Of a stretch of DNA of 64,000 nucleotides, positions 28,385 to 37,434 are shown piece after piece. Position 1 is the stretch's first letter. Each line of letters opens with the position of its first letter. The notes below the pieces were generated by a model, which saw nothing but the letters and a program-made list of their open reading frames with translations, had not been told where the DNA came from and made no database searches. The stretch is from sequence record NC_019517.1. One strand, written 5' to 3'. Position numbers and translations under genes: made by a program. Source of the stretch: Escherichia phage FV3.

Positions 28385-28779
28385 TGATCCTCCTGATTGA
28401 TACTCTCATTATAAATATCTATAAGCTGATCAGGAAGTGTTGACTTCTTGCCTTCAGGTGACTGGAGGTAGATAATCTGCTTTTCTTTACCTGCCTTCTC
28501 AGCCATATTTAATTTATCCTGCAGATCAGAAAGGGATTTTTCAAGGTTTTTAACCTCCTCTGCGTGGCCCATTTTAATTTTGTCGGCCTGCTTTTGTTGC
28601 TGATCAAGGATCCGTTCCCACTTTAACTCTGTTGCTGACACACCTTCTTGGTAGGCATCATTAAGCTTAGAGTTAAACCAATACACGGCCCCAAGATAAG
28701 CTGTACCTAGCGCAGCTGCAAAAACTAAACCTTTTATGATCCCTCTATACCTGCTCAGCCATGTTAAAACTGAAATCAT
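28381..28779 (-). CDS. Inner-membrane spanin (Rz-like)
   Basis: 132-aa ORF with N-terminal transmembrane helix followed by coiled-coil periplasmic domain; immediately followed by a lipoprotein gene. Confidence 0.55.
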   Translation of the reverse strand: MISVLTWLSRYRGIIKGLVFAAALGTAYLGAVYWFNSKLNDAYQEGVSATELKWERILDQQQKQADKIKMGHAEEVKNLEKSLSDLQDKLNMAEKAGKEKQIIYLQSPEGKKSTLPDQLIDIYNESINQEDQ

Positions 28780-28794
28780 TTTAAGGCTCCAGAA

Positions 28795-28830
28795 ACGAAA
28801 AAACCCCGCAGCTATACAGCTAACGGGGCG
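28795..28830 (-). terminator. Intrinsic terminator between early/tRNA region and lysis-structural block
   Basis: Minus-strand GC hairpin (plus 28804-28828) followed by U6 (plus A-run 28798-28803). Confidence 0.55.
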
Positions 28831-28884
28831 GGTTAAAATTGAGTAACCTAAATAGATCGAAACTAACTAAAAGGAGACTAATAC

Positions 28885-29154
28885 TTATCGAGGCACTCGG
28901 TGGATGATTCTAACAGTAACTGCATTTTCATTCATCAAGTATGCATCTACATCTCTGTAAATATAAAACTTCTGCTCACTATCAACAACACAAGCTACCG
29001 CCCCTTCAGAGTTGTCTTCAAAAAAGACCACCACTGCATCGCAGCTGAGTTCATGATATGACTCTCGAAGATTTACAGCCAGAGGATTGAAATCGTCACG
29101 AAAATCTACGGTATGGGTTGGATTTACACGCTCTACAATTTTAAGTGTATACAT
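28885..29154 (-). CDS. Hypothetical protein (89 aa)
   Basis: ORF between tRNA cluster and terminator; no motif. Confidence 0.3.
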   Translation of the reverse strand: MYTLKIVERVNPTHTVDFRDDFNPLAVNLRESYHELSCDAVVVFFEDNSEGAVACVVDSEQKFYIYRDVDAYLMNENAVTVRIIHRVPR

Positions 29155-29200
29155 TTTAAAGGTTCCTTTTGTTTGTATATGTTTAAAGTATAACTAAAGG

Positions 29201-29277
29201 TGGTCTCCACGGAGTGATTCGAACACTCGACCTCCTGATCCCAAATCAGGCGCTCTACCAAGCTGAGCTACGCGGAG
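29201..29277 (-). tRNA. tRNA-Pro: tRNA-Pro (anticodon UGG)
   Basis: Hand-folded cloverleaf: 7-bp acceptor stem, T-arm with TTCGAAT loop, anticodon loop UUUGGGA, encoded CCA. Confidence 0.7.
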
Positions 29278-29288
29278 TATTTATAATT

Positions 29289-29363
29289 TGGTGGCCCTGG
29301 GTGGAATTGAACCACCGTCTGGCGATTATGAGTCGCTTGCTTGAACCTTCCAGCTACAGGGCC
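29289..29363 (-). tRNA. tRNA-Met: tRNA-Met/Ile2-type (anticodon CAU)
   Basis: Cloverleaf with perfect acceptor stem GGCCCTG/CAGGGCC, anticodon loop CUCAUAA, encoded CCA. Met versus lysidine-Ile cannot be distinguished. Confidence 0.65.
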
Positions 29364-29364
29364 A

Positions 29365-29440
29365 TGGTGCTGATAGCAGGACTCGAACCTGCAACCTATT
29401 GATTACAAATCAATTGCACTACCAATTGTGCTACATCAGC
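29365..29440 (-). tRNA. tRNA-Thr: tRNA-Thr (anticodon UGU)
   Basis: Cloverleaf: acceptor GCTGATG/TATCAGC, D-arm GCAC/GTGC, anticodon stem ATTGA/TCAAT with loop UUUGUAA, T-loop TTCGAGT, encoded CCA. Confidence 0.7.
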
Positions 29441-29447
29441 AAAAAGG

Positions 29448-29544
29448 TGCTAGGTGATGGAATCGAACCACCTATGTATTCAACGACTACCTCGTCTATT
29501 TTCAGGATTAAAAATCCTCGCCCTTGCCAAAGGGCTTACCTAGC
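29448..29544 (-). tRNA. Atypical tRNA-like gene (97 nt; possible UUU/Lys anticodon, about 30-nt extra arm, no encoded CCA)
   Basis: Perfect 7-bp acceptor (GCTAGGT/ACCTAGC), canonical D-arm (GCCC-TTTGGCAA-GGGC) and T-arm (GGTGG-TTCGATT-CCATC), but anticodon stem is 4 bp plus a mismatch and an unusually long region lies between anticodon arm and T-arm. Confidence 0.4.
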
Positions 29545-29642
29545 TCAGTATGTTGACCATGTTGCTAGTCGGCGATGACGACTGTAACATTTGATAATCC
29601 GGTTCTGCTTCCGGCTTTCGCTTAATTACAAGGTCAACAATA

Positions 29643-29733
29643 TGGCTGAGGGTAATGGAATCGAACCATCATCGAGTCATCCTCAACGGGACGGTTTTCA
29701 AGACCGCTTGAGCACCATTGCTCCCTACCCTCA
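29643..29733 (-). tRNA. tRNA-Ser: tRNA-Ser (anticodon UGA), class II
   Basis: 91-nt cloverleaf with long variable arm; anticodon stem GCGGT/ACCGT, loop CUUGAAA; encoded CCA. Confidence 0.65.
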
Positions 29734-29847
29734 TTTATAAACAATACTGATAATGACACTGATTTTCGAGCAGTTAGTGACTAGTATAAACGACGATAAA
29801 TATCAATGCCATTATCTGTATGATTTATGCATTTAAAAATATAAATT

Positions 29848-29934
29848 TGGTGGGGAGTGGTGGAGTCGAACCACCCGAGTCGCAATGACAATAGATTTAC
29901 AGTCTACACCGCTACCTCTACGGGATAACTCCCC
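29848..29934 (-). tRNA. tRNA-Tyr: tRNA-Tyr (anticodon GUA), class II
   Basis: 87-nt cloverleaf; acceptor GGGGAGT/ACTCCCC, anticodon loop CUGUAAA, T-loop TTCGACT, encoded CCA. Confidence 0.65.
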
Positions 29935-29938
29935 AATT

Positions 29939-30013
29939 TGGCACCCCGTACTGGACTCGAACCAGTGTCAACGGCTTAGAAGGCCGCTGCTTTATCCACT
30001 AAGCTAACAGGGC
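29939..30013 (-). tRNA. tRNA-Arg: tRNA-Arg (anticodon UCU)
   Basis: 75-nt cloverleaf; anticodon stem GCGGC/GCCGT, loop CUUCUAA; T-loop TTCGAGT; encoded CCA. Confidence 0.65.
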
Positions 30014-30109
30014 ACTGGGTGGCTTTCTTTTACACCTTAGCCGCCAGAAAAGGTGGGAGACCATGTTTACAATATTACACTGTTAAGCAAAGTTTGTCAA
30101 GAAAATATT

Positions 30110-30451
30110 TTAACTATTGCCAACAGGTTGTATTTCTGTGGTAAACGGCATAAAAGGTGCTGGTTTTTCAGCCTCTTCCACTACCACCTCTTCTTCCTCT
30201 TCACCAAACATCTCATCATATTCTTCCTGCATTCGGTCTGCCTTATCAAGAACATACTCTGCAATGCTTTGACGAATATTTTGTTTGGTTTTCGGATCCA
30301 ACATCAGCTCTCTTAAAACTTTGTGAGCTTCTGGAACCATCGCTATAAAAGATTCCTTCATGTCAAGAATGTTCTTCTCTAGCTGAATGGCGTTGGACTC
30401 CTCTTTCAGAGGTCTGCCTCTACGGCGACGCTTTTTGGTTGTATCCGCCAT
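30110..30451 (-). CDS. Small AT-hook-like basic/acidic protein (113 aa)
   Basis: Likely start at ATG 30451 (MADTTKKRRRRGRPLK...) with GGAGG SD; ORF-track start at 30508 is a TTG inside the -35 hexamer. N-terminal RGRP motif with Arg/Lys run, Glu-rich C-terminal tail. Confidence 0.45.
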   Translation of the reverse strand: MADTTKKRRRRGRPLKEESNAIQLEKNILDMKESFIAMVPEAHKVLRELMLDPKTKQNIRQSIAEYVLDKADRMQEEYDEMFGEEEEEVVVEEAEKPAPFMPFTTEIQPVGNS

Positions 30452-30479
30452 GTTTCCTCCATTATCACGTGATAGGTGG

Positions 30480-30508
30480 ATTTTATCACGGCAAATACTG
30501 ATTGTCAA
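30480..30508 (-). promoter_or_regulatory. Sigma70-type promoter for AT-hook protein gene / tRNA transcription unit
   Basis: Minus strand TTGACA (30508-30503), 17 nt, TAAAAT (30485-30480), then SD and ATG at 30451; a GC hairpin (30511-30539) abuts the -35. Confidence 0.55.
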
Positions 30509-30796
30509 GTTCGCCGCAGGGTGGTATTCCCTGCGACTTGCCTAGCGTCCTAGACCAACAAGACCCAACAAGTGGGTTACCAGAGACCCATTACCGCGCT
30601 TTGGCTCGACCTTATTACAGGTTGGCTGGGGTCACATCGTCATGTGCTGGCTGCCCCTACCATTTTAAGTGTGGTGCACTATCAAGCCCTCTAAGGGGAA
30701 CTCAGACTTCTCCGAACCCTGTTTCAAAGCATCCGGAGATAAAGCCATCAAACTCATCTTTAAATTGGATATTCATCATGATACACGAAAACAACC

Positions 30797-31039
30797 TCAT
30801 TGTAAAGCACAAATAAATAAAACATACTTAATTTGTTTGTTATCGGGCTCAGGGTAGAAGTAGAAGATCTTGCTATCACCAATCTGAACACCACCATCCC
30901 AACAACATAAACCATAACCCGTATTCATACAAGCTAAGTCGTTGGCAAAATCTATTGCATCATCTAGTGCACGAAATTCACCTTCATCTTCTAAATAATC
31001 CTCATTCATGGAACGGAAAACGAGCTTAACCTTAAACAT
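30797..31039 (-). CDS. Hypothetical protein (80 aa)
   Basis: Small acidic ORF in early minus-strand region. Confidence 0.3.
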   Translation of the reverse strand: MFKVKLVFRSMNEDYLEDEGEFRALDDAIDFANDLACMNTGYGLCCWDGGVQIGDSKIFYFYPEPDNKQIKYVLFICALQ

Positions 31040-31115
31040 AGCATTACCTGTAGACCTCGTAAGTTAAAATTGTATCACATCATATTGCAGATCTTATCAG
31101 GTAACATTATTTTTG

Positions 31116-31304
31116 TCAACAGATTCCGGCCTTATCCCTCCTGTCTGCGTATTCTTTAATCGCAACCTCACCTGCATTGGTAACCAGATCTTCAAAGTAA
31201 TTCTCAAGCTCCTCGTCAATGTCCGGTGACCAGCTCTTTTTCCTGTCAGTGTGAATTGCAGACTTGTTGAACTTATTACAGTTCTTTGCTACCGGATTGT
31301 TCAT
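31116..31304 (-). CDS. Hypothetical protein (62 aa)
   Basis: Short ORF; no motif. Confidence 0.25.
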   Translation of the reverse strand: MNNPVAKNCNKFNKSAIHTDRKKSWSPDIDEELENYFEDLVTNAGEVAIKEYADRRDKAGIC

Positions 31305-31314
31305 TAAGCTCTCC

Positions 31315-31893
31315 TCAACGTTCGTAGTAAATCTTATTCAACATTACCTCATCGTTTGCAGAAAGGATATCAAGATATGCATCACCAAATCTGCCTGCAA
31401 CAACCTCTGCATGATACATCACTTCGTCAACATCGTCAAGAGTGATAACCGGATGACCATATCTTTCTGAATATTGCCTCAGGGTGCGATGTAACGAGTC
31501 GTCATCATATGCAGACTTTTTAATATCACAAACACGACGAATGGCCTTGATGTCGAAAAAGCCTGTGCGATACCATCCAAGAAAAAAGTTCCGTGTGGTG
31601 TCAACATCTACATCAATACCATCAAGAACCTTATCTACAAGATAGCTGTCATCCTTTGGACCAGCGTCCTTAGTGCGAATGTAGTTGCCATCTTTTCCAG
31701 GCGATAGCTCCTTCTCATCACCAACCTGCATGCCATCATTTGGCGGTGTTAGCCACTTATCCGGATGCTTACGATCACGAGCGTTAGAATGATTACGCTG
31801 GAAACCTGGCTTCCACTTGAAAGTTTTCTCCATCTGTTCTTCATTCTGATAACGTTTTGCAATCTTTTCGCGGTCATCTTTGCGTGAACTCAT
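31315..31893 (-). CDS. Hypothetical protein (192 aa)
   Basis: ORF downstream (minus sense) of the structured noncoding region; charged, no recognisable motif. Confidence 0.35.
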   Translation of the reverse strand: MSSRKDDREKIAKRYQNEEQMEKTFKWKPGFQRNHSNARDRKHPDKWLTPPNDGMQVGDEKELSPGKDGNYIRTKDAGPKDDSYLVDKVLDGIDVDVDTTRNFFLGWYRTGFFDIKAIRRVCDIKKSAYDDDSLHRTLRQYSERYGHPVITLDDVDEVMYHAEVVAGRFGDAYLDILSANDEVMLNKIYYER

Positions 31894-31989
31894 AGCTGCC
31901 TCCTCTTCAAGTTATAGAAAAACTCACTGTATCGCTTTGTAACGAGCTTTTCTATCAAACTGGTGCGATTGCCTTACTTGGTAGAGTTT

Positions 31990-32270
31990 ACACAGCTGTG
32001 GGGAGATTTAGGAGCCTTCTTGTCCGTTTCCACACATAAACTTTAACCAAACTCGCGCGGGAGTCTCTCAACCGACTCCTTACGGCGCTGGCAAGCTTTC
32101 GTCGGTGGTCCACATTAGTGCTCGGCCTTTGGCCTGCGCTATCGCTTCGCTCCCACACATGTTAACAGTCCTGCATGTATGCACTCCTGTTATTGTGTGC
32201 ACTATGGAGGCCCGGCATCTCGCCCCTCGTAGGCGAGTGCCAATGAGGGGCCGACACTACCCATAATAAG
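31990..32270. other. ORF-free GC-rich structured segment (candidate ncRNA or replication-associated structure)
   Basis: About 280 bp richer in GC than surroundings, with multiple nested inverted repeats (ggagtc-N8-gactcc, ctcgcc-N7-ggcgag, gcccctc...gaggggc, ggcctttggcc); no ORF of 60 aa or more on either strand. Confidence 0.3.
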
Positions 32271-32294
32271 TAATAAATTTAAAACATGGTACTT

Positions 32295-32396
32295 AGGATC
32301 TAGTATATTCTACATAAGTTAAGTATATGTACTTTAGTACCATAAGTACTAGATCTTTTATTTTTATTATTTAGTTATTTTAGTTATATTCTTTAT
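32295..32396. repeat. AT-rich tract with inverted repeats (GATCTAGTA / TACTAGATC) and short direct repeats
   Basis: Inverted 9-mers at about 32305-32313 and 32347-32357; then AT-rich run with ttagttat direct repeats (32357-32396); resembles a DNA-unwinding element. Confidence 0.4.
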
Positions 32397-32479
32397 GTGT
32401 CCGTATTGCGGACAGTTAGTGTCCGTATTACGGGCAGATGTGCCCGCGTGACGGACAGTAGTGTCCGTATCACGGACAG
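32397..32479. repeat. Four tandem palindromic 19-bp repeats (iteron / operator-like array)
   Basis: GTGTCCGTATTGCGGACAG (32397), GTGTCCGTATTACGGGCAG (32419), GTGCCCGCGTGACGGACAG (32440), GTGTCCGTATCACGGACAG (32461); each is a dyad GTCCG-N5-CGGAC; spacing 22/21/21 bp. Confidence 0.7.
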
Positions 32480-32553
32480 TTACTATCCTCTGCTCTTGGG
32501 TGGACATAAAACATACGAATCCTTATAGTACAGATATTTAAGTTTTTACTGGT

Positions 32554-32904
32554 CTAACCAGTTGTTGACATTAGAATAACCTCTTCTGGTGGCAAAACTT
32601 TGGAAAATGTGCATCTTTTACCTCTCCCTTGTGTGGATATTTCAACCACTCCTGCACATTCTAAAGTTTTAACGCACGCTGCTGCTTTTGTTTTCTTTAT
32701 CCCAACATCTGCTGCAATTTTCCTTGTGCTTGGTGTGAAGCGTGAATTTCCTCCAAGCTTATACCAGTTGTGCAGGTAGCAGTATACGATCTTGTCATAT
32801 AAGTCAAGAACAACAACCTCCCCGGTTGTGTCATTCAAAACTTTTGACATAGACAGTATTTCAAGGGGGACTTTAAGATATAGCAGCTTATCCCCATCTT
32901 TCAT
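32554..32904 (-). CDS. Putative winged-helix / HTH DNA-binding protein (116 aa)
   Basis: Helix-turn-helix-like segment (STRKIAADVGIKKTKAAACVKTLECAGVVEI); gene ends about 75 bp from the palindromic repeat array. Confidence 0.4.
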   Translation of the reverse strand: MKDGDKLLYLKVPLEILSMSKVLNDTTGEVVVLDLYDKIVYCYLHNWYKLGGNSRFTPSTRKIAADVGIKKTKAAACVKTLECAGVVEISTQGRGKRCTFSKVLPPEEVILMSTTG

Positions 32905-32951
32905 ATCTCCTGATTCTCCTTGTGTGGCAATTTTCTTTAAAATAGCAGGGA

Positions 32952-33506
32952 TTACTCCCCGCTGTCAATAGCAAGACTCATTGCAATACGGTATGCCTCT
33001 TCTAATGGTAAGAGTCTCCCCCACACATCCCAACCGACATCAAACTGCCTGCCAAACAACTGCTGTGTGGTTCCGTGAGCATGACCGAACAGTTGGACTG
33101 ATCCGTGAGGCTTTCTGTTCCACTTTGCAAACTGGTAATGGCTCATACAGATCAAATTCTTGTTGTGGCGAAGCTCGTAATAATCTACAACCTCATGACC
33201 GAACTCTTTCATAATTCTGACAGTCGTCCTTGTGTCATGGTTACCACGAACAAGAATAATATGTCCGTTCAACATATTTAGAACATCTGGGAGCAATTTG
33301 TTGATATTCTTATCCTTAGTGCATGCAATATCGCCCAAGTGAAACACAGTGTCTTCCGGTGACACAACAGAGTTCCACTCGGCGATGATTCCTGCATTCA
33401 TACTGTCAAGATTGCGATCATACTGAGATCTGTGTTTTTGACATGAATCAAACTCCATGACTCGCTGGTGGAGAAAGTGTGTATCGCTTGTTACAAAATA
33501 TTTCAT
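32952..33506 (-). CDS. Calcineurin-like metallophosphoesterase (candidate RNA 2',3'-phosphatase)
   Basis: 184-aa ORF with metallophosphoesterase motifs (SDTHF..., GDIA, GNHD, GHAH); adjacent to P-loop kinase gene. Confidence 0.55.
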   Translation of the reverse strand: MKYFVTSDTHFLHQRVMEFDSCQKHRSQYDRNLDSMNAGIIAEWNSVVSPEDTVFHLGDIACTKDKNINKLLPDVLNMLNGHIILVRGNHDTRTTVRIMKEFGHEVVDYYELRHNKNLICMSHYQFAKWNRKPHGSVQLFGHAHGTTQQLFGRQFDVGWDVWGRLLPLEEAYRIAMSLAIDSGE

Positions 33507-33513
33507 ACATCCC

Positions 33514-33924
33514 TCATTTTAGTTTAATGCAGTTTTTAAGCTCACGCTCCATACGGTCCACAACCCTATTTGGAACATCATGAATGCTCTTATTACCGTG
33601 GCGGTTTTCAACCACGATCACAGTATAACTATACCCATGACTGATTGCCATGTCAACATATTCTTGCACATGTTTTTCTTTTGTAAACGTATTACTTACC
33701 ACGACACGGTCGTATCCCATACGCATCATATCTTCTACGTTATCTTTGCACCATTTTGCTGCAAGTGTTACTTTACTTGCATCCCAGTTGTAATTTCCAT
33801 CGTCGTCGTACCAGAACATGTCGTTCTCAAAATGTGGGTACAGCCCCTCTAAAGATAGTGCATTTGCCAGTGTTGATTTGCCAGAACCTGGTAGACCACG
33901 CACGATATATAGCATTTTAGACAT
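33514..33924 (-). CDS. P-loop polynucleotide kinase-like protein
   Basis: 136-aa ORF with Walker A (GLPGSGKST) at N-terminus, resembling the kinase domain of polynucleotide kinase. Confidence 0.55.
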   Translation of the reverse strand: MSKMLYIVRGLPGSGKSTLANALSLEGLYPHFENDMFWYDDDGNYNWDASKVTLAAKWCKDNVEDMMRMGYDRVVVSNTFTKEKHVQEYVDMAISHGYSYTVIVVENRHGNKSIHDVPNRVVDRMERELKNCIKLK

Positions 33925-33952
33925 AGTATTCCTCCGTTTTAATTTTAATGGT

Positions 33953-33981
33953 AGTATACATAACTCTTTTGTTCATTTCAA
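33953..33981 (-). promoter_or_regulatory. Sigma70-type promoter for kinase / phosphoesterase operon
   Basis: Minus strand TTGAAA (33981-33976), 17 nt, TATACT (33958-33953), followed by GGAGG and ATG 33924; lies in the divergent region opposite the plus-strand early operon. Confidence 0.5.
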
Positions 33982-34024
33982 GTGTTGACACGAGTTTATT
34001 TGTGTGGCAAGATAGAGTGACAAA

Positions 34025-34960
34025 ATGGCAAACGAGGAATGTATGATGAAGTATTTTAATGCAGATGATTTGGTGGATAAAGGTCTTGTAACCAGTCGGT
34101 ATTATCCAGATCTTGGATTAAAGATCTATAAATATGCCAGAAAAGTATTCTACAACAATTTATGGCATTTGTCTCCGCGTTTACTAGAGTGCCGAGGAAT
34201 TGTTGTCGGTAATGAAGGAAATGTTGTGGCATGGCCCTTCACAAAAGTGTTTAACTTGGGAGAAAATTCCACCAACCTGCCTGACAATAAACTTGTGACG
34301 GCGGTAGAGAAAAAGAACGGATTCCTTGGTGTGGTATCATCTCACAAAGGTGAACTGTTGTTCTCAACAACCGGGTCTCTTGATTCTCCATATTGTAACC
34401 TTGCAAAGGAAACAATCCAGGAGCAATGTGGTAATTTAGATCTTATCAAGAAGGTTATGGGCCATGAAAACATGACATTCATGTTTGAAATTTGTCACCC
34501 TTCAGATCCGCATATTGTTCAGGAAGATCATGGCGCATATTTGATAGGTTTCAGATATAATGATTCTGGAATAATGCTACCAGAAGCAGCTTTAGATGGG
34601 ATTGCCAAATACCTTGGTGCAAAACGTCCTCACACTGTGCGTGAAATTCCGTTCAGCTATGCAAAAGAATTAGCTGCAGAAACAAGAGGTGAAGGGTATA
34701 TGATTCGTAAGCCTTACTACCCTTATGATCTGCAGCTGAAGATCAAGTCTCCATACTATTTGGCACGGAAGGCCGTAATGAGGGGTAAAGCTTGGAAGAT
34801 TTGGGATAATGATATCTTTAAACGTGTTGACGAAGAGTTTTACGGCATGGTAAACTTCATTCGTAGAAACTACACAGAAGATGTGTGGAATTGCCTCCTG
34901 GAGCAGGAACGCCGTGAGATACTTGACTGCTATTTCCACAACGAGGACTATATGCAATGA
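34025..34960 (+). CDS. Putative ATP-dependent RNA ligase-like nucleotidyltransferase
   Basis: 311-aa ORF with ligase-type motifs: motif I lysine (EKKNGFLG), motif IV (EGYMIRK), motif V (LKIKSP). True start may be ATG 34043 or 34046 after GAGGA SD. Confidence 0.45.
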   Translation: MANEECMMKYFNADDLVDKGLVTSRYYPDLGLKIYKYARKVFYNNLWHLSPRLLECRGIVVGNEGNVVAWPFTKVFNLGENSTNLPDNKLVTAVEKKNGFLGVVSSHKGELLFSTTGSLDSPYCNLAKETIQEQCGNLDLIKKVMGHENMTFMFEICHPSDPHIVQEDHGAYLIGFRYNDSGIMLPEAALDGIAKYLGAKRPHTVREIPFSYAKELAAETRGEGYMIRKPYYPYDLQLKIKSPYYLARKAVMRGKAWKIWDNDIFKRVDEEFYGMVNFIRRNYTEDVWNCLLEQERREILDCYFHNEDYMQ

Positions 34961-35307
34961 AGAAGTTGATTGTGTGGCTGGATGACTTGAGAGATCCGTC
35001 AAATTATGGGCTCCCAGATGCTCTTTGGCTAAAGAATTCCTCTGAGTTTATGGATTTTATTAACGATAAGGGAAAGCTCTACAGGCGCGTTTCTGAGTGG
35101 CACATGGACAACGACCTTGGAGAGGTATTTGAAGGGTACGATTGCCTATCTATGCTGGAAGAAAAATTTGTATTTGGTAAGCCTCCTGTAGTTGACAACG
35201 TGAAGATTTTCGTGCATACTTCTAACCCATCAGCCGCTCGTAAATTCATGCTTGCTGCTGACTCGTTTAAAAAGTTTGGAATAGAGATTAAACAAAACAT
35301 CTACTGA
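34957..35307 (+). CDS. Hypothetical protein (116 aa)
   Basis: ORF translationally coupled (ATGA overlap) to the ligase-like gene and immediately upstream of the Sir2-like gene. Confidence 0.3.
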   Translation: MKKLIVWLDDLRDPSNYGLPDALWLKNSSEFMDFINDKGKLYRRVSEWHMDNDLGEVFEGYDCLSMLEEKFVFGKPPVVDNVKIFVHTSNPSAARKFMLAADSFKKFGIEIKQNIY

Positions 35308-35315
35308 GGACACTT

Positions 35316-36077
35316 ATGCGACGACTGATCATTATCTCCGGTGCTGGTTTGAGCGCTGAATCTGGTATCCCAACTTTCCGATCTGGTGGCACTGCAATGT
35401 GGGAGAATTTCAGCATCGATGAGGTGTGTAACATCCACACCTTTGCCAAGAACTACTATAAGGTACATGACTTTTACAATGCACGGCGTGTAGCTTTGGG
35501 GAGTGTTGAGCCTAACCTTGCACATCTCCGGATCGCTGAGTGGTATTCCCGCTGGTCTGGTCGTGTGATCAACCTGACCACCAATGTAGATGATTTGCTG
35601 GAGCGTGCTGGTGTAAAACATGAAGATATTTTGCATGTCCACGGGTATTTGCCAGAAATAGTTTATGAGGATGATGAAGGGAATGACGTCATTAAAGACA
35701 TTGGATACTCTGAGGTAGATGCAAGCGAGTATACTTGGGTCAAGCCTAATGTAGTGTTCTTCGGAGAAGTAGCTCCAAAGTATGTAGACATGTATGACCT
35801 GTTGACTTCTCTGACGAGCAATGATATGGTTATCCTTGTAGGGTGCTCCAACACAGTTATCAATTTTAACTGGGAGCTATTCCCTGCCTGTAATAAGGGG
35901 ACTAAACTACTGATCGTTAACAAATACGACTCACAGCATTTAGGGGAGAATGGCATTTCACGTAGTGACATTTACCAGTATGAGGATCGCGGAATCCCAG
36001 TTTGGTTTAACGGGGCGGTTGACGCTTTCTCTGATAAAACATTCATTGACATCGTAGAAAACTTTATGGAACTGTAA
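35316..36077 (+). CDS. Sir2-family (sirtuin-like) NAD-binding protein lacking zinc ribbon
   Basis: 253-aa ORF with sirtuin Rossmann-fold motifs in order: GAGLSAESGIPTFRSGG, TTNVDDL, catalytic-His motif HVHG, VVFFGE, ILVGCS, LLIVN; no CxxC...CxxC zinc-binding pairs. Confidence 0.65.
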   Translation: MRRLIIISGAGLSAESGIPTFRSGGTAMWENFSIDEVCNIHTFAKNYYKVHDFYNARRVALGSVEPNLAHLRIAEWYSRWSGRVINLTTNVDDLLERAGVKHEDILHVHGYLPEIVYEDDEGNDVIKDIGYSEVDASEYTWVKPNVVFFGEVAPKYVDMYDLLTSLTSNDMVILVGCSNTVINFNWELFPACNKGTKLLIVNKYDSQHLGENGISRSDIYQYEDRGIPVWFNGAVDAFSDKTFIDIVENFMEL

Positions 36078-36091
36078 GCGGAGGCCTTTTA

Positions 36092-36805
36092 ATGCTGAAT
36101 ACTAAACTGATCGACAACCTGGAAAAACTGTCTCAGCCTGAAAACTACCTTTGGTCTGCCAACTGGGTGGAAAATTGGAACCGTGTAGCAGCTAAAGTGA
36201 AAAAATCATACACACCATTCGAACTTCAGCTGAGTTTCATTGAGGAAGAGTTCAATGAAGTTTTGGAAGAGTTGGAGAAAGGTGATGGTGGGGATCATCT
36301 CCTAAAAGAGGCCTGCGATCTTCACGTTGTCACAAGTTATGCCGCTTATCTTGTTAACGATAACCATGAAAAGTGGTCAAACCTGTTTGATAATCCGCGA
36401 GGTCTTAAGTTTAAGATCGGTGAATTTTATGATACACTGATCGCTGCGAAAAATACCTCTAAGCAAAGAGCGTCTGCTTACCGCTTAGCAGAGTTGTCAA
36501 CAGCTTTGCTGTTCCAGCTTCGCGGTGATGTGTGCGGGATGATGCGGAAGGTTCTAAAATCTAATGACAGCAAGTTTGCACGCGTCAACCATCTGCGGTA
36601 TTCACACGGTGCCAGTGCAGATATGCCTGCTGAACAACTCATCGAGTTGGAGATTAAAGATCTTGAGCGACGCTTTGATGGTCGCTATGAAGGTTTTGTT
36701 GCTAAAGAAGAATTCTACAACGGAAATAAAGTTATCATATTCCTCGACAGTAAAGGTAAGATTATGAAGCCTTCGAGCTTCAAGGATGTAACAGAATATA
36801 TTTAA
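36092..36805 (+). CDS. MazG-like nucleotide pyrophosphohydrolase domain protein
   Basis: 237-aa ORF; N-terminal region has the all-alpha NTP-PPase acidic motif (IEEEFNEVLEELEKGD...EACDL). Confidence 0.45.
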   Translation: MLNTKLIDNLEKLSQPENYLWSANWVENWNRVAAKVKKSYTPFELQLSFIEEEFNEVLEELEKGDGGDHLLKEACDLHVVTSYAAYLVNDNHEKWSNLFDNPRGLKFKIGEFYDTLIAAKNTSKQRASAYRLAELSTALLFQLRGDVCGMMRKVLKSNDSKFARVNHLRYSHGASADMPAEQLIELEIKDLERRFDGRYEGFVAKEEFYNGNKVIIFLDSKGKIMKPSSFKDVTEYI

Positions 36806-36811
36806 TAACAT

Positions 36812-36840
36812 AGCCGGGGTGATCCCGGCTTTACTTGTTT
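36812..36840 (+). terminator. Intrinsic terminator after MazG-like gene
   Basis: agccggg-gtgat-cccggct stem-loop followed by T-rich tract. Confidence 0.5.
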
Positions 36841-36869
36841 CGGAAAGTATGCAAGTGAGGTAGAAAGTT

Positions 36870-37178
36870 ATGTACAAGCACTCTAGAGATCTTGAAAACG
36901 ATGCTGTGTTTGGTGATCAGATGAAAGAATTGGTTAAACTTATAGGTAGGATAGAGGATAAGTTTGACACTAAGATCTACATCGACAGCAAAGTATTCAA
37001 CCACAAAATATGGACAAATTTGTGTGTTGGACTACATGGGGATAAAGATGTGGTAAATTTAGTTGTAATTAAGTTCATAGTGTGGCAGAATAAGACTATA
37101 AGTTATTACGATCCGCACCTGCTTGTTTACCCGATAAAAGACCTATTAGAGAAGGAGGACTGCAATGCCGTTATTTAA
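36870..37178 (+). CDS. Hypothetical protein (102 aa)
   Basis: ORF with plausible SD; no motif. Confidence 0.3.
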   Translation: MYKHSRDLENDAVFGDQMKELVKLIGRIEDKFDTKIYIDSKVFNHKIWTNLCVGLHGDKDVVNLVVIKFIVWQNKTISYYDPHLLVYPIKDLLEKEDCNAVI

Positions 37179-37434
37179 TCTTGCTAAACCTGTAGAAGCA
37201 CACCAGTTTGACGGAAGCTCTTCATCAGTATCTGATCTGCAACGGTGGATTGATACAGGTGTGTTTACATCGTCACCTGTTCGAACCAGAGATATTCTTC
37301 GCATGTGTGAGCTTGTCGAGCCGTTTGGTAACCTGGTCTTGTACCAAGGGGATTGGTTAGTTGACTTTATGGGAGACTGGTTGGTAATGAGCAAAGAAGA
37401 GATGTTTAAAATTTTTAAGGAAGAGGCTGAGTAA
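37165..37434 (+). CDS. Hypothetical protein (89 aa)
   Basis: ORF coupled (TAATG) to DNA ligase gene. Confidence 0.3.
   Translation: MPLFNLAKPVEAHQFDGSSSSVSDLQRWIDTGVFTSSPVRTRDILRMCELVEPFGNLVLYQGDWLVDFMGDWLVMSKEEMFKIFKEEAE

Follow-up and report, generated by a model that had tools for sequence, protein, structure and literature searches.

In the 64,000-nucleotide stretch of Escherichia phage FV3 (NC_019517.1) analysed here (the window), a sirtuin of 253 residues is encoded at 35316-36077 on the + strand, among genes for enzymes that process nucleic-acid ends. Our favoured reading, to which we assign a probability of roughly 0.45, is that this sirtuin removes 2'-phosphates from RNA at the expense of nicotinamide adenine dinucleotide (NAD+), by analogy with KptA/Tpt1, inside a phage module that heals and seals nucleic-acid ends; the purpose of that module is most likely the repair of tRNAs, of host or phage origin, after cleavage by anticodon nucleases of the host. 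What was observed directly comprises the identities of the domains, the intact state of the catalytic residues, the linkage of the genes and the loss of the zinc ligands. In support of the reading, the residues for ADP-ribosyl transfer and 2'-OH activation (F21, R22, N90, D92 and H109) are invariant; the domains RNA_lig_T4_1, cREC_REC, SIR2, AAA_33, Metallophos and DNA ligase occur in one locus; the genes are packed in an operon-like manner (an ATGA overlap, ribosome-binding sites and an end hairpin); and, in T5-like loci, Sir2 is separately associated with a different RNA-end enzyme, HAD_SAK_2. A wider formulation, in which the sirtuin acts on nucleic-acid phosphate ends and either removes RNA 2'-phosphates or ADP-ribosylates terminal RNA or DNA phosphates with NAD+, is put forward tentatively.

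An earlier note, made from the letters of this DNA alone, had placed three open reading frames (ORFs) on the + strand, at 34957-35307 (116 residues), 35316-36077 (253 residues) and 36092-36805 (237 residues), and had quoted five sirtuin motifs from the second. The three ORFs were recovered at exactly these positions, and all five motifs were found in the 253-residue translation: GAGLSAESGIPTFR (residues 9-22), TNVDDL (89-94), HVHG (107-110), VVFFGE (146-151) and ILVGCS (173-178). Against Pfam SIR2 (PF02146) this protein scored 94.7 bits (cut-off 24, E 8.3e-27) over profile positions 1-178 of 180, and against phrog_2162 it reached E 7.9e-109; judged by its motif set and profile scores, its identity as a sirtuin is far beyond chance. 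G9-A-G11, S16-G17, F21-R22, N90, D92 and H109 were invariant in 33-35 members of the phage clade, and the catalytic N and H were kept in 149 of 150 representative relatives.

The absence of a zinc ribbon, also reported in the note, was borne out. The protein has three cysteines in all (C38, C177 and C192), none of them between H109 and E151, and no CxxC; likewise, no cysteine between H109 and E151 and no CxxC was present in any of the 33 aligned clade members. On realignment, the four cysteine ligands of Sir2-Af1 and Sir2Tm fell opposite Y116, D119, V134 and S137 or in deletions. In an AlphaFold2 model of the sirtuin (pLDDT 85.5, pTM 0.86), three beta strands (110-118, 124-128 and 142-146) occupy the place of the zinc module, which suggests that the ligands were lost while a metal-free remnant of the module persists.

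Comparisons with known sirtuins point to a class III ancestry. The nearest solved relatives by sequence (phmmer against the PDB) were SIRT5, CobB and Sir2-Af1, with E-values of 1e-21 to 1e-19, and the best folds found with Foldseek were CobB peptide complexes (E 6e-18, TM 0.82-0.84), followed by SIRT5 and Sir2-Af1. By both sequence and model, then, the phage sirtuin derives from the class III deacylase sirtuins (CobB, SIRT5). In SIRT5, Y102 and R105 hold the acidic end of succinyl- or malonyl-lysine. The residues Y54 and R57 of the phage protein align to this pair, are invariant in the phage clade and are kept in 110 of the 150 representative relatives. As this is the pair with which class III enzymes bind anions, the substrate pocket can be expected to take up a group with a negative charge, and a negatively charged substrate fits the retention of the pair. 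Searched exhaustively, 1.84 billion cluster representatives yielded 74 relatives at E<=1e-30. The top 16 all lacked the zinc cysteines; from rank 17 (~50% identity) onwards, relatives with four cysteines and two CxxC motifs were interleaved, and these have the '...I/LGY...' hairpin in common with the clade. In these relatives, the first CxxC stands where the phage protein reads 'YEDDEGN' and the second where the phage protein has a deletion. This interleaving indicates that the zinc ligands were lost secondarily from a class III ancestor. Against the NCBIfam CobB equivalogs, the best score was 120.9 bits for a cut-off of 243 (NF001753), and all seven models fell below their cut-offs, so by this measure the phage sirtuin is not a CobB orthologue.

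From the missing zinc ribbon, the earlier note had gone on to an NADase or ADP-ribosyltransferase class, and this step fails: the best sequence and fold matches are class III, and zinc-less NADase sirtuins (ThsA, DSR, FAM118) form the separate SIR2_2 family (PMC12700824). No match of the sirtuin to SIR2_2 (PF13289) was obtained even at E<=10; PADLOC at E<=0.01 returned no ThsA, DSR or SIR2-HerA model, its sole match being a spurious one to PDC-S65 (E 0.008); and no NADase-type sirtuin was among the top 50 fold matches. A classification with ThsA, DSR or SirTM was rejected on these grounds, with no SIR2_2 match, no PADLOC defence-sirtuin match and best matches that were all class III deacylases. 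The structural comparison that the note had proposed upheld a canonical sirtuin fold and disposed of a SirTM/ThsA-like one. A macrodomain partner is the hallmark of SirTM, and no Macro domain was found in the nine flanking proteins or in the annotation 20 kb to either side in the near-identical phage HMD-6. The same point with respect to SirTM has been remarked on before (PMC9503650). Sensor or regulator partners (SLOG, HerA, a solenoid C-terminal domain) were also absent from this single-domain protein of 253 residues, which stands beside an RNA ligase, a cREC protein and a MazG-like protein. The ThsA, DSR1/2 and SIR2-HerA systems share with it membership of the sirtuin superfamily and the lack of a zinc-binding module; unlike them, it has no sensor or partner domain, has the canonical six-stranded class III fold and is encoded by a phage rather than in a host defence island.

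The RNA ligase, kinase and phosphoesterase near the sirtuin, which the earlier note overlooked along with the DNA ligase downstream, give the module its likeliest meaning, which is RNA end repair. The rightward four-gene unit begins with an RNA ligase of the T4 Rnl1 family (34025-34960, +, 311 residues), which matched the full profile of Pfam RNA_lig_T4_1 (PF09511, E 5.1e-15) and phrog_562 (E 1.6e-65) and in which the motifs KKNG, EGYMIR and LKIKS could be read directly; against the NCBIfam T4 RnlA equivalog, it scored 39, below the cut-off of 242. The 116-residue ORF that follows (34957-35307, +) had been described as an unknown small protein, which is incorrect: it matched Pfam cREC_REC (PF20274, E 4.5e-14, 53.3 bits for a cut-off of 27), a receiver-like domain predicted to process cyclic phosphates (cREC), as well as phrog_1479 (E 9e-35). 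Its D9, D10, D51, D53, S89 and K96, the receiver-type acidic active-site set, were invariant in nine homologs; its catalytic role is a predicted one. Next comes the zinc-ligand-less, class III-derived sirtuin, identified by the SIR2, phrog_2162, PDB and AlphaFold2 comparisons given above and proposed here as an enzyme of NAD+-dependent ADP-ribosyl transfer.

The fourth gene of the unit (36092-36805, +) encodes an all-alpha nucleoside triphosphate (NTP) pyrophosphohydrolase-like protein of the MazG / dimeric-dUTPase superfamily, 237 residues long and with a C-terminal beta-hairpin extension. The label 'MazG-like' given to it earlier stood at the superfamily level, on a match to phrog_671 ('nucleotide pyrophosphohydrolase', E 5.4e-22) and on an EExxE...ExxD signature (E52-E53-x-x-E56 ... 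E73-x-x-D76) that was invariant or nearly so in 17 sequences; beyond that level it did not, the Pfam PRA-PH match being sub-threshold (13.7 bits for a cut-off of 21.3, E 0.084). NCBIfam and PDB sequence searches with this protein gave no matches. Its AlphaFold2 model (pLDDT 74) is all-alpha through residue 194, and the best PDB folds were the phage dimeric dUTPases 5mil and 5myd (Foldseek probability 0.99, with weak E-values of 0.2-1).

To the left, on the - strand, lie a P-loop kinase of the AAA_33 type (33514-33924, 136 residues) and a calcineurin-like metallophosphoesterase (32952-33506, 184 residues). The kinase matched Pfam AAA_33 (E 6.5e-11), phrog_2071 (E 6.5e-58) and phrog_505 ('polynucleotide kinase', E 3.9e-10) and is a candidate polynucleotide 5'-OH kinase. 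The metallophosphoesterase, which may serve end healing as a 2',3'-cyclic phosphodiesterase or a 3'-phosphatase, matched Pfam Metallophos_2/Metallophos (E 3e-7 to 5e-7), phrog_547 ('phosphoesterase', E 1e-51) and PDB 1xm7 (E 2e-10), and accompanies the cluster in 16 related loci. Farther to the right is an ATP-dependent DNA ligase (37434-38717, +, 427 residues; Pfam DNA_ligase_A_M and OB_2, phrog_114 E 1e-82), which in several related lineages follows Sir2 at a distance of 0-190 nucleotides. Single-sequence PDB searches with the RNA ligase, the kinase, cREC and the MazG-like protein gave nothing usable, cREC yielding only spurious CD58 matches, and the assignment of these four consequently rests on Pfam and PHROG profiles.

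The junctions between the rightward genes are tight. The start of cREC overlaps the stop of the RNA ligase (ATGA), from which we take cREC to be translationally coupled to the ligase, and the Sir2 and MazG-like genes each have a GAGGA or GGAGG site of their own 5-7 nucleotides upstream. A GC-rich, terminator-like hairpin followed by a T-rich run (36812-36830, +), found as a consensus match with an 8-bp stem containing six GC pairs, is the probable 3' end of an Rnl1-cREC-Sir2-MazG transcription unit. At the other end, the divergent intergenic region of 100 nucleotides between the kinase and the RNA ligase (33925-34024) contains a perfect TTGACA at 33985-33990; no convincing sigma-70 promoter was found in this region, as the TTGACA has no acceptable -10 element at normal spacing.

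In sirtuin deacylation as in the Tpt1 reaction, C1'' of NAD+ is first attacked by an oxygen nucleophile, and in the last step the attack comes from the ribose 2''-OH, which in sirtuins is activated by a conserved histidine. The step-for-step match makes removal of a 2'-phosphate a plausible chemistry for the phage enzyme. In the mechanism that we infer, for which the published model (PMC9503650) is taken over as the one with the best support, the module would comprise a leftward arm of kinase and metallophosphoesterase and a rightward arm of Rnl1, cREC, Sir2 and MazG-like protein extending to the hairpin, and then the DNA ligase. Ends bearing a 2',3'-cyclic phosphate would be opened by cREC to 2'-phosphate/3'-OH, the 5'-OH would be phosphorylated by the kinase, and the break would be sealed by Rnl1. 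The leftover 2'-phosphate would then be taken off by the sirtuin with NAD+, in the manner of KptA/Tpt1 in yeast-type tRNA ligation: a phosphate oxygen would attack C1'' of NAD+, and the ribose 2''-OH, activated by His109, would release ADP-ribose 1'',2''-cyclic phosphate. The metallophosphoesterase might provide a parallel, T4-style route in which the phosphate is removed outright, and the MazG-like enzyme might clear nucleotide by-products or merely be part of the neighbouring nucleotide-metabolism genes. Fungal Trl1-type ligation, which sets the precedent for a sealing reaction that leaves a 2'-phosphate behind, requires a 2'-PO4, which is subsequently removed by Tpt1 (PMC10946426).

To assess how far the linkage extends, iterated hidden Markov models of the neighbouring families were run against 71 loci of the Sir2 clade on viral contigs (34-93% identity). 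In Vequintavirus, the gene order is the same as in the window. The full six-gene set was present within 32952-36805 of the window, in two of the surveyed loci (L001/L019) and, rearranged, in Mydovirus-like loci. In the latter and in three other lineages (~145-153 kb), the order is phosphoesterase-Rnl1-(cREC)-kinase-Sir2-DNA ligase, and the MazG-like gene follows after another 2-3 kb; the kinase gene of Mydovirus-like loci is thus directly upstream of Sir2, and the linkage outlasts rearrangement at a Sir2 identity of ~56%. In 28 T5-like loci, Sir2 is followed in turn by a small ORF, by HAD_SAK_2 (E 2e-20; the phosphatase known as 'Swiss Army Knife RNA repair') and by two DUF7415 genes. Phage 7-11-like loci and one further locus (L069) combine Sir2 with the phosphoesterase and the DNA ligase, and in phi92-like phages none of the tested partners was found within 10 kb of Sir2. 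The lineage survey therefore identifies the end-healing and sealing cluster as the conserved unit, in which membership of Sir2 is frequent but lineage-dependent. It follows that the cREC-Sir2-MazG trio, which the earlier note took for a linked set, is not the conserved unit: relatives bear out the link between Sir2 and end-repair genes in several lineages, and the order of the trio is confined to rV5-like phages. The suggestion in the same note that the sirtuin belongs to an anti-defence, NAD-linked module probably holds. Among 50,697 phage records, the Sir2 family was counted in 1,005 and cREC in 342, Sir2 being present in rV5-like, T5-like and phi92-like phages.

Several observations in the same loci concern other neighbours of Sir2. 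The two DUF7415 genes of the T5-like phages are tandem and always come after Sir2 and HAD_SAK_2 (L016 6494-7323 and 27 other loci). NADAR genes lie 0.5-3.5 kb upstream of a divergent Sir2 (34-37% identical) in six jumbo-phage or large contigs (L079, L083-L086 and L088) and ~5 kb downstream of Sir2 in Mydovirus-like loci (L040-L047 and L074); the window contains no NADAR gene. The two families may form a writer/eraser-type pairing. A NAMPT gene is located directly upstream of Sir2 in a 120-kb viral contig (L076 8057-9490), and in Justusliebigvirus PD06, which is phi92-like, NAMPT and PRPP synthetase genes stand in divergent orientation beside the cREC/RNA-ligase cluster (L017, NC_052653.1 98686-101384). 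The presence of NAD+ salvage genes by these modules hints that the phages make provision for their use of NAD+ or for its depletion in the host. Finally, in the phi92-like and several further lineages, the gene before Sir2 encodes a conserved protein of ~200-240 residues, without a Pfam match and with the motif '..VVVF(A/D)THGL.ARR.G..' (L009 4793-5404; L071 9017-9733; L068 8839-9498; L057 9062-9733). It usually comes after a C5 DNA methyltransferase-like gene and is an alternative, unexplained partner of the sirtuin.

A number of points weigh against 2'-phosphate removal as the function of the sirtuin. In PD06, nothing is missing from the cluster (cREC..PE-RNA ligase-kinase..DNA ligase), but Sir2 is encoded ~30 kb from it, next to a DNA methyltransferase gene, and at least 12 further loci have no tested partner within 10 kb of Sir2. 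Kinase, metallophosphoesterase and Rnl1 constitute a complete T4-type pathway, so that on paper Sir2 is unnecessary. The Sir2 clade is uniformly acidic, with isoelectric points of 4.6-5.8 (37 acidic versus 21 basic residues in the protein described here), whereas the KptA proteins of E. coli and phages have isoelectric points of 7.1-9.4; an acidic protein is unfavourably equipped for gripping RNA, which we regard as mild counter-evidence. The Y..R pair and the catalytic residues fit an ordinary protein deacylase of the desuccinylase type equally well. The DNA ligase is found near Sir2 no less consistently than the RNA ligase, so that the enzyme could be acting on DNA ends or on some other substrate. 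No homology to KptA/Tpt1 was detected, SIR2 being the only Pfam family above threshold. Homologs of E. coli KptA were found in 98 phage records; in the three neighbourhoods inspected, the genes flanking KptA had no family matches, so this comparison did not demonstrate that KptA and Sir2 occupy equivalent slots. A search of the literature returned no experimental test of a phage sirtuin or of cREC.

The acidity of the clade and the class III pocket lead to the alternative that survives best, although we consider it rather unlikely: the protein may be an ordinary protein deacylase, NAD+-dependent like CobB and SIRT5 and probably with a preference for acidic acyls (succinyl, malonyl), that acts on host or phage proteins during infection. 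In a speculative variant, its task would be to keep host metabolic enzymes, or the catalytic lysines of the RNA and DNA ligases encoded beside it, free of modification; its place in a repair cluster would then be incidental or regulatory. The solved relatives closest in sequence (E ~1e-21) and in fold are deacylases, as described above; the full catalytic set and the pair equivalent to SIRT5 Y102/R105 are invariant, and relatives with four cysteines and the same hairpin motif occur at ~50% identity. Basic protein substrates would suit an acidic protein better than RNA does, the peptide cleft may still form on the beta remnant that the model places at the zinc module, and in several lineages it is the DNA ligase that immediately follows Sir2. 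A deacylase function is nonetheless hard to reconcile with the clade-wide loss of all four zinc ligands, since canonical sirtuins reportedly need the zinc module to deacetylate (PMC12700824). The Sir2La preprint, consulted for a precedent of a zinc-less deacylase, offered nothing relevant. The protein also scores far under every NCBIfam CobB equivalog cut-off, CobB is already supplied by the host, and the recurrence of RNA-end-processing neighbours in unrelated phage families would be left unexplained.

An improbable alternative is that the substrates are small molecules derived from NAD+ or ADP-ribose, with the sirtuin consuming or remodelling NAD+, or making or destroying an ADP-ribose signal, so as to counter NAD+-centred immunity. 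Processing of the soluble products would then fall to cREC and the MazG-like enzyme, an idea that agrees with the prediction that cREC also processes cyclic ADP-ribose phosphates (PMC7824862, PMC9503650). The NADAR genes in jumbo-phage, large-contig and Mydovirus-like loci and the NAMPT genes near Sir2 or the repair cluster lend this alternative some weight, and to such a substrate the acidic surface would be no obstacle. Within the window, however, Sir2 is flanked by no NADAR, Macro-like or NAD-salvage gene, and across lineages the MazG-like gene does not keep its place beside it; the sirtuin matched none of SIR2_2, ThsA, DSR and SIR2-HerA, none of which was in the top 50 folds; and burning NAD+ would bring little benefit to a lytic phage, which needs it. 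Least probable is a host-takeover protein ADP-ribosyltransferase (T4 Alt/ModA/ModB-like or SirTM-like) modifying host proteins early, for although sirtuins can ADP-ribosylate proteins (literature cited in PMC9503650) and the gene lies in a non-structural, presumably early or middle arm, no macrodomain eraser gene is nearby, the intact catalytic histidine and class III acyl pocket are typical of deacylase-type chemistry, the gene context points to nucleic-acid ends, and packaging or injection signals were neither seen nor looked for.

The gene neighbourhood and the mechanistic hypothesis of 2'-phosphate removal have already been published. Iyer, Burroughs, Anantharaman and Aravind (2022, Viruses 14:1977, PMC9503650) described it as phage sirtuin RNA-repair neighbourhood type 2, with Escherichia phage V5 and Proteus phage Mydo as prototypes, predicted in their section 3.7.3 that the sirtuin removes RNA 2'-phosphates with NAD+ like KptA/Tpt1, and also reported the T5/SP15-type HAD association and a jumbo-phage type. 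Their type 2 set is identical to that of the window (sirtuin, T4-like RNA ligase, cREC, nucleotide kinase, MazG-superfamily pyrophosphatase and a calcineurin-like phosphoesterase, the last being optional there), and nothing substantive differs. The cREC domain had been named and linked to RNA ligases by the same group in a jumbo-phage paper of 2021 (PMC7824862), and existing GenBank records already annotate the three genes. To the published account (PMC9503650), the present analysis adds the class III ancestry with its Y..R pair, the loss of the zinc ligands at the level of residues with retention of the beta hairpin, and the acidity of the clade. It further adds that MazG adjacency is restricted to Vequintavirus, that the DNA ligase is constantly found nearby and that Sir2 stands apart from the cluster in phi92-like phages.

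Compared with systems that have been characterised, the sirtuin shares with CobB and SIRT5 the motifs GAGxS..SGIPxFR, NxD and HG and the Y-x-x-R pair, but differs from them in lacking the four zinc cysteines, in the deletion of the second zinc knuckle, in its divergent C-terminal 70 residues and in being encoded by a phage in an RNA-end-repair setting. With KptA/Tpt1 it would share the proposed NAD+-dependent removal of a 2'-phosphate, via an ADP-ribosylated intermediate and 2''-OH attack, and it does share the company of RNA ligation and healing enzymes; the fold and family are unrelated, so the likeness is one of analogy and not of membership, and KptA is neutral to basic whereas the phage clade is acidic. 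In phage T4, tRNA repair by Pnkp and Rnl1 counters the anticodon nuclease PrrC. The module described here resembles that system in uniting an Rnl1-family ligase, a 5'-kinase and a phosphate-removing enzyme in a lytic coliphage with tRNA genes of its own, but its kinase and phosphatase are separate proteins, its phosphatase is calcineurin-like rather than of the HAD type, and cREC, Sir2 and the MazG-like protein are extra.

Should 2'-phosphate removal be correct, a coliphage would possess yeast-style 2'-phosphate tRNA ligation assembled from non-homologous components, with cREC standing in for the 2H phosphodiesterase and Sir2 for Tpt1, and its sirtuin would be the first demonstrated to be directed at nucleic acids in repair. 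Sirtuins would thereby gain a new class of substrate, RNA phosphate ends, and phage tRNA repair would exist in a second, NAD+-dependent form beside the classic T4 pathway, with a bearing on how lytic phages used in therapy or biocontrol escape tRNA-cutting host defences. The gene is routinely annotated as 'Sir2 deacetylase' and the hypothesis has been published; the value of these results lies in a well-defined and cheap biochemical test rather than in discovery.

The wider setting of the module is that of an rV5-like Vequintavirus. In a GenBank comparison, more than 100 E. coli myophages of the rV5/FV3 type matched the region at 94-99% identity, with EPFV3-03/2025 as the best match (98.7%) and rV5-derived records at 94%. 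Near position 34000 the coding strand changes, and the GC skew with it. According to the annotation of HMD-6, structural, lysis and tRNA genes are encoded on the minus strand to the left of this point, and replication and nucleotide-metabolism genes on the plus strand to its right. Sir2 is therefore located at the head of the nucleotide-metabolism and replication arm, a non-structural and presumably early or middle arm of the genome, and this position is the sole support for the label 'early operon' that had been attached to it. ORFs antisense to the three genes had no family support.

About 4 kb to the left of the module are tRNA genes, seven according to ARAGORN, of which six were confirmed by Rfam; these nearby tRNAs are possible substrates of the repair module. 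Apart from tRNAs, no RNA family was found in 28500-39500. Within the tRNA cluster (29201-30013), ARAGORN reported a tRNA-like gene of 99 nucleotides (29446-29544, - strand) with a four-base anticodon, 'atcc', which gave a weak match to the Rfam tRNA family (35.5 bits); HMD-6 annotates only three tRNAs in the equivalent cluster. This gene could be an intron-containing, frameshift-suppressor-like or degenerate tRNA.

Between the hairpin and the DNA ligase are two small overlapping ORFs of 102 and 89 residues (36870-37434, +), which matched phrog_7684 and phrog_14585, families with no known function. Their homologs stay in the cluster in rearranged lineages, including Mydovirus-like loci, and the two proteins may be uncharacterised components of the repair cluster. 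Lastly, MG065655.1, MG065652.1 and some 20 more GenBank records labelled as 'Campylobacter phage' (C. jejuni phages) were ~94% identical to the region. These records are unannotated and in some cases fragmentary (59 kb), and their labels look like mislabelling or contamination rather than a genuine host jump.

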